A stretch of 64,000 bases of DNA. Origin: Microthyrium microscopicum (Eukaryota). The stretch lies in NCBI GenBank assembly GCA_010405405.1, contig MU004238.1, positions 1,065,530 through 1,129,529 of the forward strand. Direction: 5' to 3'. Below, one piece after another: positions 17,207 through 21,051 of this stretch (the first letter of the stretch is position 1; every line of letters begins with the position of its first letter). The position numbers were made by a program, and so were the translations under genes. The notes beneath the pieces are model-generated. The model saw only the letters and a program-made list of their open reading frames with translations. It was not told the origin of the DNA and did not search any database.

Positions 17207-19387
17207 ATGAGGCCATTGAATAGTAGGTACGCTATGCTCCTTTTTTAGTCTTGCTTTTCATGATGATACATGTATAACATTAGAACCGTTGCGACTGAGC
17301 GCAAGCTTTGATCTTACCTACTCAAATCCTGATTCACACCTTAAGCTTTATATTTGTTCTATGTGTTGGTCTACCTTAAGCTAAACATATCCCTACAGAA
17401 TGCGCCCCGGTTATGCGCTTCGGACCACTCGAATTCTTCGCCGGTACTATAGTAGCAGTAGGAATGCATCCTCCATCACACCATCTGTTTCTGCGCCAGG
17501 GTTGCTTTGGGCCGCGGAATCCTTTCCCCAACGAGTTAACGAGCTGAAAGAATACTATCATGACAACGACACTGTTAAGCATGGAGACTCCATGTATCCG
17601 CGGCTCCCACGCATGGAAGGCTTTATTGGCCCGAAGAGGTTTCCAAGCCTTGTTAGAGATCTGGCCGCCAAACAGGCGTCTACAGACTCTTCCAATATCG
17701 AGGGCTCGCCAAGCTCGCAGATCGCAACCCACCTATGGAGCCTTGTTGGTTTGTCACACTCTACTTAGTGTGAATTTTGGCTAATTGGAACAGGTCGGGT
17801 GGACGCTGTTCGCACGCACGGTAAACATCTGATTTTTATCGACTTGACCCGGGACGAGCGGACCATTCAAGTAATGTGCAATTACAAGTCCTTTGAACGA
17901 AAAGATGCAGATCAAGGGAAGGAACCTGGTCCCGCGATCGAACAGGCATGGGAGAAATTTGCCAAAACAGTTAAGCCTAGAGATACATATGGTCAGTGGA
18001 TTTGAAAGTCATCGTGAAGAAATCTAACACCTTCTGAGCCTTCACCGGGCGCCCTATGACCACTTCATCCGGACAATCAACCCTTGAGTGCAAGCGCCTT
18101 CCAACTTTGCTAGCTCCGTCACTACACCAAAGGCCTGATAATATCAAGGATCGTCAAACTTTGGCTAGATTCCCCCAACTCGAGCTTGATCAAAGTATTG
18201 AAAAACGTCGTCTCATAAAGCTACGACATGGGATTCTGAAGTATCTACGCTGGTACTTGCATGGGGCCCACTTTGTTGAAGTGAATACACCTATCATCGC
18301 TGCAGATGCTGGCGGTGCTGTCGCGAAACCATTTGTTACACGAGGAAACAAGACGTCGGATCAAGACTTGTTCCTGAGAATTGCGCCAGAGTTAGAACTC
18401 AAAAAACTCATAGCTGCTGGTATGGACCGAGTCTACGAAATCGGTCCTAGTTTTCGCAATGAAGGTAGGTCTTTGTTTCTCGTCTTGCCTCACTTGTACA
18501 AAACTAACTGTTCGATAGGTCTAGACGCAACCCACAACCCGGAGTTCAGTATTTGCGAATTTTATATGGCGTTTGCTTCTTTGAGCTCAATTATGCAAAG
18601 GACTGAAATAATTTTACGCCAGCTCGTCGAACGGTTTACTGTTTCACCTGGCGACCAGCTGCCACTACCCGAATATCTACCTACACTAAAAAATCTATCA
18701 TCTACGATGAAGGAAAGTTTTCCAAAGATACAATTTCTCCCAAAGTTAGAAGAGATATTGCATGAACAAGCCGAGCTAGCAGATTTTCATTTCCAACAGC
18801 CACTGACTACTGAATCACTACAATCAGTCATCGATATTATGCCCAAACTCGGCATCAAGCAAGAACAAATTGGCAATGATCCCAAAGTTCCTCACATCCT
18901 CGACCTTCTTGCTAGCCATCTCCTCGAGCCACTATGCGACAAGCCCTCCTTCATCGTCAACTATCCAGCCATCATGTCACCTCTTGCCAAGTCATATATA
19001 TGCCCCCAAACCGGCATTGAACTCTCTGCTCGAGCTGAGTTGTTCATTCATGGAACCGAGGTGGCCAACATGTACGAGGAGGAGAACAATCCTTTCGTTC
19101 AGGCACGCAAATTTCTTTTACAGCAGCTCGATTCTCTCGACAACACTGCGCAGGCACTGGAACGCTTGGGCGGATCCACCCTTGACGAGCTATCACATCA
19201 ACAAATCGTGAACTTGCTGACGCCTGGCCAACGGTACTATATTCGTGTACTGGAGATGGGTCTACCCCCTACAGGTGGATGGGGATGCGGACTGGATCGA
19301 TTGGTCATGCTGCTTGGTGGTGCTAAGCGGATTGAAGAGGTATTGCCATTTGGCAACTTGAGGCATGTCATTGCAATGGGAACGTAA
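17207..19387 (+). CDS. MSK1: Mitochondrial lysyl-tRNA synthetase, class II (exons 17207-17226, 17399-17748, 17794-17991, 18039-18464, 18519-19387)
   Basis: GGAVAKPF, FLRIAPELELKKL, FRNEGLDATHNPEF, GLPPTGGWGCGLDRLVM; Arg/Ser-rich presequence. All introns keep frame; intron 3 needs a GAG acceptor; an alternative start exists at 17400. Confidence 0.92.
17255..17337 (+). ncRNA. Intronic box C/D snoRNA with two antisense elements to LSU rRNA
   Basis: Box C ATGATGA 17260-17266, D' CTGA 17295-17298, D CTGA 17329-17332. Guides AGAACCGTTGCGA and CTACTCAAATC are complementary to conserved 25S/28S sequences UCGCAGCGGUUCU and GAUUUGAGUA(G/A), recalled from known fungal rRNA. Lies in the 172-bp intron 1 of LysRS. 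Confidence 0.82.
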
Positions 19388-20093
19388 GTGTAAGAGTATT
19401 GTATGTATCTACTATGGAACCATGTTAACAACCTAGTTGCCTTCTCGTGATTGCGTCGAACTCATGTGCTTCAAGACTAAGCCGGTTGCTTCACTTCCTT
19501 TCTGTTAGTTCCTATACCGACCATCACTGCCTTAGAACTATATCTGGTGTACATTCCATTCCATCTAACTCTCCATCGTTGACCACCAATGATGCCCAAA
19601 GGGCTCAGAGTCGTATGCGTTTCCAAAACGCCTCACTCACTCAGGGCGTTCCTTCTCGAAGCAGCTACACAGCGTTAGGCTTTGGCACCATAAAGTCGTA
19701 ACTGCAATTGTATCGCTCCATATTTGCTTCAAAGAGATCCTCACACTCTCACTAACTCAAGATAGAGCCTGAATAGGCTCTCAGCATCCATAAGCTGATG
19801 CCTATCTTTGCCATATTCCTCGGTTCTTCTCGTAGCCTTCTCAGCTTTCACCTGTAACCTTCTTCTACCTTCTGCCTGCTTCGTATCCTGTTTATGCAAC
19901 CTCTCCTCTCTTTGCCTATGCCGTCCCCTCTCCTCTACCTTATCTTCAACCAGCTTCTCTAACACAAGTCCTCAATCTGTGTTGTTATAACCTTGCTGCC
20001 TTTTTCTCTCACCCCTTTGCCTACTTCCCTACTCTTAAATCTTCTTATTCTTTATATTAAGAGTTTCTATTCTTATAAGAGAAAGTCATCATT

Positions 20094-21051
20094 ATGAGCT
20101 GGTCAAAGTCTACTAATGAACGGCAATCTTTTGCAAAGATCACCAACCGAATGATCATTCAATTCAAGTAAGTCTCTTATACTCTAGCCGCTATCTTATT
20201 ATCAATCTTTAACAAAATCTAGAAGCACTACGACTCGCTCCAAGCAATTCCTCCATGGCTTAGAGGCAAAAACCTCATTCGATGAGCTTACCACCCCTGA
20301 GCAAGCAGACTATCTGCTGTCTAATCCAACCCCAAACATCCTCGCCCATGTCCCGATGAACGAGTCACTCACGGAGTTCTGGCGAGATAGTCATGGCAGA
20401 GCTTTTGACCCGGCCGCCACAGCTACACTGACCTCCCACGAGGTCACGGCTTTCACTATGGCCATGCAGTCAATGAAAAGTCGCCTGGGAAAACTCAGCC
20501 AGTCATCATCCTCCACGAAAAACAACTTTTCTGTCACGGAAAAACAACTCGACTCCATGCTGCAACGACTAAGCTTGACGTTTTGGTCAATCAATGCGCC
20601 CAATGCTGGCAATCTCTCTCCCGCCGTAGAGACAGAGAGCGCTCTTGCGACGCTTTGCAATGATGACCATGTTGTACAGTCAATCGAAGACTCTCCTCAT
20701 GATGCCAAGCCAGCCAACCTCGCCACACCGGGGTTTGATCAAGACGGATTCCGCCGTCCAGAACTCCCCAAGAAGCACCGACTGTCTCAGACGGGCTTCA
20801 GAACCCCTCCTGAGGCTGACTCTGATGATGAGTCTGATATTCAACATGACGCACCACCAAAACGTCGCCGCGTCCACCCTCCCACTGTTGCCTGTAAGCC
20901 CAAAACCACCGGAAAAGCCAGAAGTGAGCGAGGCATGACAGTATCCAACATCATCCCCGGCCCGCGAACAAGACGCAACCGCGGTGGAGTACCACCACGC
21001 GACTGGCGTCCCTCGCAAGTTCGAGCGCTAAAAGATCTTGAGCGTCATTAG
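20094..21051 (+). CDS. Hypothetical protein, ~300 aa (exons 20094-20167, 20223-21051), disordered basic C-terminus
   Basis: GTAAGT...CTAG intron joins an upstream ATG exon in frame to ORF 20356-21051; NLS-like PPKRRR; no family recognised. Confidence 0.55.

Follow-up and report, generated by a model that had tools for sequence, protein, structure and literature searches.

A predicted intronic box C/D snoRNA hosted by a lysyl-tRNA synthetase gene of Microthyrium microscopicum

Introduction

The stretch of 64,000 nucleotides from Microthyrium microscopicum that was analysed here, and which is called the window at its full length, contains a gene for a lysyl-tRNA synthetase (LysRS) with a first intron of 172 nt. 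This raises the question of whether such an intron holds an RNA gene of its own and, if it does, what that RNA would guide. A preliminary description of the window had proposed a box C/D snoRNA with two guides against the large subunit (LSU) rRNA, and regarded the pair of guides as possibly lineage-specific and their host gene as unusual. Box C/D snoRNAs are stable RNAs of about 70-100 nt that are bound by fibrillarin, Nop56, Nop58 and Snu13. They are characterized by a C box (RUGAUGA) towards the 5' end and a D box (CUGA) towards the 3' end, by the D' and C' boxes between them, by a terminal stem that joins the two ends and by an antisense element to rRNA or snRNA, of 10 nt or more, that runs up to D or D'.

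Results

Host gene and intron

The exon structure was taken from a transcript contig (X5, for which the run type 'RNA?' is a guess). This contig joins position 17226 to 17399, and exactly 17227..17398 (+, GT..AG) is spliced out as the first intron of the LysRS gene. The second intron (17749-17793), also skipped in the contig, has 45 nt; the first intron is therefore about 3.7 times the local size, and the earlier remark that it is over-long was correct. The X5 contigs show spliced LysRS mRNA only. Of the further runs, X6 covers no more than 17718-17850 and X7 gave nothing in this region. Exon 1 ends at 17226, and its terminal part (17207..17226, +) begins with an upstream ATG at 17207-17209 and belongs to the segment 17165-17226 that the spliced contig covers. 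Once the intron is removed, this ATG is in frame with the ATG at 17400, and either of them is a candidate start.

The host gene (17399..19387, +) encodes a class II LysRS of the bacterial type (PF00152, 4e-56), with exon joints from the transcript contig; TIGR00499 lysS_bact is the best NCBIfam match of the protein at 280 bits. Judged from its N-terminus alone, which is Arg-rich after the ATG at 17400, the enzyme is probably mitochondrial. A putative branch site, GCTAAAC, can be read at 17380..17386 (+), about 50 nt past the D box described below, and the 3' splice site follows that box at a distance of 66 nt. In the homologous introns that we collected from other fungi, the branch sites are CTAAC-like or CTGAC-like and the D box is mostly 60-85 nt away from the 3' splice site.

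Anatomy of the predicted snoRNA

A covariance model of the snoRNA family (R1), which was built without the window, matched 17258..17335 (+) with 63.7 bits (rough E 4e-14) and was aligned over positions 1-84 of its 84; these are the limits of the model match rather than of the mature RNA. Over the 64 kb, R1 had no other convincing match. A second one at 20063-20094 (-), with 10.8 bits and an E of 0.91, covered the C-box end only and was dismissed. The C box ATGATGA (17260..17266, +), the D' box CTGA (17295..17298, +) and the D box CTGA (17329..17332, +) can be read from the sequence at 17260, 17295 and 17329, just where the preliminary description had put them, and 73 nt are spanned from the C box to the D box. 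The D' and D boxes directly follow guide 1 and guide 2, respectively. A C' box, TGATCT, is found at 17309..17314 (+), and its TGAT is invariant among 43 distinct sequences of the family. Between the D' and C' boxes there is a short hairpin (17299..17306, +) made of GC, a GCAA loop and GC, at the position homologous to the helix of the family; R1 aligns two of its pairs.

A search for a terminal stem returned only GCTT (17253-17256) with AAGC (17343-17346), which is asymmetric, and no clear stem. For Aspergillus fumigatus, Jochl et al. (PMC2377427) report that the C/D snoRNAs have no terminal stem. The fold of the whole intron was no better than that of shuffled sequences (z = +1.58).

Rfam had been suggested as a check on the candidate, and this check did not come out in its favour, as no family reached its gathering score anywhere in the window. 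Only RF00476 (snR61/Z1/Z11) aligns end to end, with 17255-17335, by way of the shared C, D' and D boxes; it has 17.2 bits, an E of 2.3 and a gathering score of 45. The guide regions of RF00476 and of the candidate differ, and in Neurospora crassa the snR61 homologue is another snoRNA, CD38, which targets Am1114.

With the splice joint, the boxes and the 63.7 bits of R1, the proposal of a C/D snoRNA in the first LysRS intron is well borne out. We consider it highly likely, for the identity of the RNA and its D' guide taken together, that 17258-17335 is an intronic box C/D snoRNA whose D' guide targets the LSU nucleotide equivalent to A866.

Predicted targets in the LSU rRNA

The LSU targets were checked on eukaryotic rDNA in place of this species' own rRNA, with the pattern GATTTGAGTA-N65-95-TCGYRRCGGTTCT, which was matched by at least 50 contaminant contigs in prokaryote assemblies. 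Among the matches listed, 48 of 50 contigs carry both targets exactly 78 nt apart and the other two are chance matches. Three of these LSU contigs were confirmed as LSU_rRNA_eukarya by Rfam. Both complementarities that had been proposed were thus seen on eukaryotic LSU rDNA, in 48 of the 50 contigs listed. A scan of viral contigs for both rRNA targets gave 22 matches with scattered spacing, none of them rDNA-like, and we read these as chance.

Guide 1, the D' guide, is TTAGAACCGTTGCGA (15 nt, 17280..17294, +), with a core at 17282-17294. It pairs with TCG[C/T]AGCGGTTCTGA in 47 of the 48 LSU loci listed, and the contig of the 48th stops a single base beyond TTCT. Of the 15 bp in the duplex, two are G-U (three in the T variant); its core has 13 bp, and the G-U pairs number 1-3 overall. 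By the D'+5 rule, T17290 lies opposite the target A, which is A846 of N. crassa and A866 of yeast, the A on the 5' side of yeast G867.

This numbering was anchored on the methylation sites of N. crassa. In three of three LSU loci, the offsets -61, -49, 0, +10, +42 and +51 match Gm785, Am797, Am846, Am856, Gm888 and Am897, respectively, and the offset from N. crassa to yeast LSU numbering is 20. Cm776 was unmatched at -70, where the three loci have T, T and G. The distant Um667 was matched in two of the three loci and Am635 in one; these mismatches arise because variable regions with indels lie between. The positions of about 866 (D'+5) and about 778 (D+5) given earlier agree with the N. crassa table and the offset of 20. 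A location of the guide 1 target next to the U18 site (~640) was ruled out by the positions in the LSU loci together with the N. crassa table.

Guide 2, the D guide, is CCTACTCAAATC (12 nt, 17317..17328, +), with a perfect core at 17319-17328. In all 48 LSU loci listed, GATTTGAGTA is matched over 10 Watson-Crick pairs that begin directly at the D box, and seven of the 10 bp are A-U. The pairing reaches 12 bp in three of the 48, and 37 of the 48 have an A where the guide needs a G for the 11th pair. When the guide was shuffled, 338 of 20000 sequences (1.7%) matched the 10 pairs, and about 0.1% matched a duplex of 12 bp. By the D+5 rule, A17324 is placed opposite the third U in GAUUU, which is U758 in N. 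crassa and U778 in yeast. No site at U758/U778 is present in the methylation tables of N. crassa or A. fumigatus, and a full-text search of the literature for sites at A866, A846, U778 or U758 returned only the N. crassa paper, for Am846.

The family across fungi

The family was collected by a metagenome scan with a pattern derived from the window, consisting of the C box, guide 1 and the D' box, and 61 fungal loci matched. Because the pattern was taken from the window, these three elements are conserved across the loci by construction. The TGATGA of the C box is invariant in alignment A1, but it was demanded by the search pattern. Likewise, the pattern-selected guide 1 is invariant in the 61 loci except for one C at a wobble position (in L073), which replaces the T of a G-U pair and still pairs with the rRNA G.

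More can be learned from the elements that were absent from the pattern. In 60 of the 61 loci, the sequences parse as complete C/D snoRNAs of 73-84 nt, and the remaining locus is cut by the end of its contig. Each of the 60 homologues that could be parsed has a D box and also a C' box of the form TGAT[C/T]; among the 43 distinct sequences, TGAT is invariant and the C that follows is at least 90% conserved. The C' and D boxes are therefore conserved in the orthologous introns, which had been named as a check on the candidate, in a way that the pattern does not dictate. The helix between D' and C', of 5 bp, covaries: it is 91% paired, and double changes were found in all five pairs. Its covariation score was 0.534, compared with 0.187 in shuffles, of which 0 of 500 reached it, and a slid helix scored at most 0.10. 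In the window, the hairpin has 2-3 bp versus 4-5 bp elsewhere, and the spacer has 9 nt versus 10-19 nt in the parsed homologues.

In 48 of the 61 loci, the snoRNA is followed on its own strand by a LysRS gene. The other 13 contigs stop 51-816 nt beyond the C box and for the most part do not reach across the gap of 546-887 nt that separates the C box from the catalytic LysRS ORF across the family (777 nt in the window). The idea of an unusual host gene thus has to be given up; LysRS is the regular host of this snoRNA family across many fungi. From these loci, the family is spread over many filamentous ascomycete-like fungi, where its place is always a short way 5' of the LysRS start codon. The host LysRS protein of the window is about 38-47% identical to the other family hosts and has a branch of 1.87 changes per site. 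Despite this diverged host, the 26 nt from TATAACATT through D' in the window are those of the family consensus.

The D guides were screened against partial rRNA, comprising about 650 nt of the SSU 3' end, the 5.8S rRNA and the LSU to about 2850. The guide 2 version was found only in the window, and none of the other 42 distinct members of the family has it. A D guide common to 14 loci of another clade pairs over 10 bp with the 5.8S rRNA, which indicates that D guides in this family can be constrained. Within the family, it is the D guide that evolves quickly. Guide 1 is common to the 61 fungal loci and has the target of N. crassa CD25, and so the lineage-specific pair of the preliminary description is reduced to guide 2.

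Discussion

In N. crassa, CD25 is an intronic snoRNA of 81 nt that was seen by cDNA cloning and northern blot (PMC2780460). It is listed with a D' guide for the predicted target 26S-Am846 (match 13/0) and with no D target (PMC2780460, Table 1), and no yeast homologue is listed for it (PMC2780460). CD25 (Liu et al. 2009) is Nc_CD_25 in the snoStrip naming, and its sequence is within GenBank EU780925-EU780999. It shares with our family the target nucleotide, the position of the D' guide and the intronic origin, and its 81 nt compare with 73-84 nt here; the difference is that the D guide in the window is complementary to the LSU, whereas CD25 is listed with the D' target only. The family described here is very probably that of CD25, an assignment made by target, guide position, size and intron location and not by sequence. 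Since the site of guide 1 is the target of CD25, our candidate would add one more member to a family that is already known, and in the host where this family is usually found.

Following what is known of other intronic snoRNAs, the RNA would be freed from the 172-nt LysRS intron by splicing, debranching and exonucleolytic trimming, and would then be packaged with the box C/D proteins, among them the methyltransferase fibrillarin/Nop1. The D' guide would pair with LSU 5'-UCGCAGCGGUUCUGA-3' and direct 2'-O-methylation of A846 (N. crassa), which is A866 in yeast. In this lineage, the D guide could pair with GAUUUGAGUA(GG), which lies 88 nt before the first target in the LSU, and a second methylation, at U758/U778, may be guided in this way.

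It is possible that the second of these guides does not work, and that the snoRNA acts by its D' guide alone, the D match to LSU GAUUUGAGUA being a product of chance or a vestige. The D guide differs among clades, with the version of the window absent from the other 42 distinct members, and the relatives with a CTCAAA motif (L090/L097, L126, L128, L129 and L112) have no run of at least nine pairs at this LSU site, where they pair over 6-7 nt by hand alignment. Moreover, the complementarity was sought after the fact, the D duplex of 10 bp with its seven A-U pairs is equalled by 1.7% of shuffles, and N. crassa CD25 is listed with the D' target alone. However, the match starts exactly at the D box, is perfectly Watson-Crick and falls in an LSU segment that is invariant in the 48 loci listed. 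Conservation of the C' box speaks for a use of the second half of the RNA, and another clade has its D guide under constraint; in a survey of the fungal snoRNAome, 14 of 68 C/D families have a lineage-specific second target (PMC5824354). We see an even chance that the snoRNA is of this single-guide kind. Because guide 2 forms 10 pairs and 1.7% of the shuffles do as well, the chances that it directs methylation at the U758/U778-equivalent are also about even.

Two other readings concern the element as a whole. When the literature was searched for snoRNAs associated with LysRS, the one result was the report of a conserved structure, #11, in the LysRS intron or 5' UTR (Gao et al. 2021, PMC8216456). 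It measures 60 nt, has 4 covarying pairs and is represented by 180 sequences, and the authors propose LysRS autoregulation for it (PMC8216456). It was reported for Pezizomycotina, with A. fumigatus, and not N. crassa, listed as a model organism (PMC8216456), and the text has no mention of box C/D for structure #11 (PMC8216456). [quoted passage not shown] We infer that they are the same element from a comparison by description, in which 4 covarying pairs stand against 5. If so, the conserved element might be a cis-acting structure to which the synthetase binds for its autoregulation rather than a snoRNA that acts in trans, as its strictly conserved position beside the start codon would also allow. 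However, the covarying helix has only 5 bp and is located between the D' and C' boxes, and the most conserved part is an LSU antisense of 13-15 nt that ends at CTGA, together with C, C' and D boxes at snoRNA spacing. Furthermore, the N. crassa snoRNA with the same target was cloned and is a stable RNA of 81 nt on the northern blot (PMC2780460). A purely cis-acting element is thus very improbable. The other reading accepts the family as real and takes the copy in the window as a decaying one, unprocessed or nonfunctional in a fast-evolving lineage. The branch of the host LysRS (1.87 changes per site), the hairpin of 2-3 bp instead of 4-5 and the spacer of 9 nt instead of 10-19 could be signs of this. 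Yet none of the four boxes departs from the canonical form, the family consensus is kept over the 26 nt that run from TATAACATT to the end of D', and the intron length and the distances from the boxes to the splice sites are kept, so that decay has only a slim chance of being right.

A cis-acting role and a snoRNA role are not mutually exclusive.

Taken jointly, the observations would fit a picture in which the snoRNA and LysRS, probably the mitochondrial enzyme, form an ancient and essentially obligate pair in filamentous ascomycetes, the published autoregulatory structure is the internal hairpin of this snoRNA, and one guide is fixed on the A866-equivalent while the second is re-aimed by lineage, to C13 of the 5.8S rRNA in one clade and to the LSU U778-equivalent here. 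We put this forward tentatively, as its parts would all have to hold and the whole falls somewhat short of an even chance. If it is true, 2'-O-methylation would occur at the U778-equivalent, for which the literature searched has no report from any organism. At the least, an over-long first intron correctly flagged what is very likely a real gene for a non-coding RNA, and a snoRNA from one experimental study in N. crassa would be extended to a large family, to which the window adds a highly diverged member. The published LysRS intron or 5' UTR structure gets a testable re-reading as a snoRNA and not an autoregulatory element. In addition, there is a candidate for a new methylation site in the U778-equivalent, and an example of guide turnover in which D' would be fixed and D re-aimed. 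What is gained is knowledge at the level of annotation, with one modest correction of the literature, and the understanding of snoRNAs is unchanged.

Some other snoRNAs were compared with the candidate. A. fumigatus Afu-199, an orphan of 79 nt in intron 1 of Afu7g02320, was tried as a member of the family and rejected; the gene is annotated as 'Unknown', has no yeast orthologue and is not LysRS. No match to an snR50 model was obtained with Rfam at E values up to 10. In yeast, snR50, the guide for 25S Gm867, pairs with the same short stretch of the LSU as guide 1, whereas the +5 position here falls on the neighbouring A and not on G867.

The snoRNA and its intron

The RNA in the window is predicted to be an intron-encoded box C/D snoRNA, and the intron that carries it is real. 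A 5581-nt contig from X5, a public sequencing run that carries the locus and was labelled 'RNA?' by guess, is identical to the window and omits exactly 172 nt between 17226 and 17399 (GT..AG). This is the first intron of the lysyl-tRNA synthetase (LysRS) gene, at 17227-17398 of the forward strand, which starts with GTACGC and terminates in CAG. The second intron, of 45 nt (17749-17793), is also omitted from the contig, and the first is about 3.7 times as long as this neighbour, which bears out the over-long intron of the preliminary description. Reading the forward strand, we found all the elements listed there at their places: the C box ATGATGA (17260-17266), guide 1 (TTAGAACCGTTGCGA, 17280-17294) with the D' box CTGA directly 3' of it (17295-17298), and guide 2 (CCTACTCAAATC, 17317-17328) followed directly by the D box CTGA (17329-17332). 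A mini-hairpin, GC-GCAA-GC (17299-17306), lies between D' and the C' box TGATCT (17309-17314). Beyond this anatomy, the mechanism would follow what is established for box C/D RNPs and for the processing of intronic snoRNAs. A study of Neurospora crassa snoRNAs (PMC2780460) notes that the distance to the 3' splice site is important.

Conservation of the family and of its host gene

Metagenomes were scanned with a pattern consisting of TGATGA, 5-35 nt, guide 1 with T or C at the wobble position, and CTGA. The scan returned 61 loci, against about one expected by chance on a rough estimate. Because the pattern specified the C box, guide 1 and D', their conservation in these loci follows from its construction; that of the hairpin, the C' and D boxes, the spacing and the host gene does not. 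Of the loci, 60 parsed as complete C/D snoRNAs of 73-84 nt, with C' and D boxes outside the search pattern, and the 61st was interrupted by the contig end. The family comprises 43 distinct sequences, window included. Its D'-C' spacer forms a 5-bp helix in which 91% of the cells are paired and all five pairs show two-sided changes. Its covariation score is 0.534; shuffles give 0.187, with none of 500 reaching the observed value, and slid partners give no more than 0.10. A covariance model built on the 42 metagenome sequences alone, excluding the window, matched the candidate over its full length with 63.7 bits (rough E 4e-14) and gave nothing else convincing within the 64-kb window. The boxes, the spacing, the covarying hairpin and this match argue for the snoRNA reading proposed earlier.

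The host gene is shared as well. The LysRS ORFs of the window matched downstream on the same strand in 48 of the 61 loci; the remaining 13 had just 51-816 nt of downstream sequence, and no other host gene was found at any of the 61. From the C box to the start of the catalytic ORF there are 546-887 nt in the family and 777 nt in the window. In the family flanks, donors resembling GTAAGT precede the C box, in most cases by 35-50 nt (range 10-69). Branch-plus-AG sites follow the D box, mostly at a distance of 60-85 nt, and an ATG usually comes immediately after them. From TATAACATT to the end of D', 26 nt of the window are identical to the family consensus despite a divergent host protein: the LysRS encoded at 18038-19387 is an outlier, with 1.87 changes per site on its end branch where the median of 26 homologues is 0.13, and has at most 47% identity to other LysRS homologues.

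Targets in rRNA and relation to CD25

The reverse complements of both guides, with wobble codes, were run as a pattern on a prokaryote genome collection and matched at least 50 contigs. Among the 50 matches listed, 48 were one conserved segment with both targets exactly 78 nt apart, and two were chance matches. Three of the matched contigs were eukaryotic LSU rRNA by Rfam, with 5.8S and SSU alongside. The 48 of 50 listed are eukaryotic rDNA fragments carried by short contigs in assemblies of bacteria and archaea, an indication that these assemblies are contaminated. The 15-bp duplex of guide 1 with TCG[C/T]AGCGGTTCTGA has two G-U pairs, and a third where the target carries T (19 of 48 LSU loci). 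Guide 2 pairs perfectly with GATTTGAGTA in all 48, and its duplex reaches 12 bp only in the three loci with GG next. Real LSU rDNA supports both target assignments of the preliminary description. One family member, L073, is alone in having C for T at the guide position facing an rRNA G; this converts G-U to G-C, as expected if the guide reads rRNA.

The rRNA A facing T17290, which is guide nucleotide five counted upstream from D', served as the origin for counting. In all three LSU loci tested, positions -61, -49, +10, +42 and +51 were G, A, A, G and A. Because these match Gm785, Am797, Am856, Gm888 and Am897 of the N. crassa methylation table, in which Am846 is also listed (PMC2780460, Table 1), the D' target is N. 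crassa A846. Cm776 of that table had no match at -70 (T, T and G in the three loci), and the distant Um667 and Am635, matched in two and one of the three, fit incompletely because variable regions intervene. Shared sites are numbered 817, 876 and 908 in yeast (PMC5824354) and 797, 856 and 888 in N. crassa, so that yeast is 20 higher. With this offset the D' target is yeast A866, and the predicted guide 2 target, 88 nt upstream, is N. crassa U758 or yeast U778; the numbering given in the preliminary description was right. In yeast, the adjacent G867 is methylated via snR50. The U18 region was considered as the site of guide 1 and rejected, since the count gives A846.

The fixed function of the family is predicted to be that of a D' guide for the LSU A846/A866 position. 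According to PMC2780460, CD25 of N. crassa is an intronic snoRNA of 81 nt, found by cDNA cloning and northern blot, with 26S-Am846 as the target of its D' guide (13/0 match), and is listed without homologue in yeasts, Arabidopsis and human. The window RNA agrees with it in target, guide position, match length, size and intronic location, and on these listed features of CD25 we file it as a probable CD25 family member. Rfam has no model for this snoRNA: nothing reaches gathering, and the sole weak alignment is to snR61 (17.2 bits, gathering 45). The suggestion of a lineage-specific guide pair in an unusual host was not upheld, because the family is a known one and has guide 1 and the host gene as its conserved core. 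The only new element would be guide 2, with a putative function.

The second guide

D guides vary among clades and follow the host-gene tree, and one clade has a common TGCC-containing D guide. The D guide can be constrained in the family, because CACATCGATCCGTTGT is common to fourteen loci with differing hairpins. This commonest D guide (L075, L077, L079, L082 and 10 more loci) pairs over 10 bp with the 5' end of 5.8S rRNA, placing C13 at +5, presumably near human 5.8S Um14; the paired segment ACAACGGATC occurs in two of the rDNA contigs (L070, 408-417; L036, 843-852). The D guide of the window is unique among the 43 distinct sequences. Relatives carrying the related CTCAAA motif gave no run of at least 9 pairs at the LSU site in our scan, and just 6-7 nt paired there on hand alignment. 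When guides were shuffled and compared to four reference rDNA loci, 10 Watson-Crick pairs at offset 0 or 1 arose in 338 of 20000 (1.7%) and 12 pairs in 19 of 20000. In favour of a function of guide 2 are the conservation of the C' box and the position of the guide directly against the D box; against it are an A-U-rich duplex of 10 bp, its absence from the other 42 distinct family members and an after-the-fact search. We consider the chances that it acts at U758/U778 to be about even. Methylation at this position was not named in the literature searched.

The LysRS leader

Structure #11 of Gao et al. 2021 (PMC8216456), in the LysRS intron/5' UTR, is described from 180 Pezizomycotina sequences, with 4 covarying pairs and 60 nt, and its authors suggested autoregulation of the synthetase. 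It fits the D'-C' hairpin found here in its host gene and location, its size and the number of its covarying pairs. Judging by the counts in the text, structure #11 is probably this element, described without its boxes; the text of that paper does not interpret it as box C/D.

The downstream ORFs encode a class II synthetase (PF00152, 4e-56), for which the top NCBIfam model is bacterial-type lysS (TIGR00499, 280 bits). This match and an Arg-rich N-terminus suggest a mitochondrial LysRS. Because the X5 contig extends upstream to 17165, exon 1 contains the ATG at 17207. After splicing, this ATG shares its reading frame with the one at 17400, directly behind the 3' splice site; either is a candidate start. 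An ATG lies at most 9 nt upstream of the donor in 13 of the 37 distinct family loci with a recognisable donor. Several of these 13, L084, L093 and L104 among them, show by eye short upstream ORFs that traverse the snoRNA intron and terminate at the main ATG or overlapping it. Downstream of the snoRNA, the window intron contains a 10-nt direct repeat, ACCTTAAGCT, at 17338-17347 and 17373-17382, with the palindrome CTTAAG within it. The second of these copies overlaps the putative branch site, and base pairing between the copies is possible.
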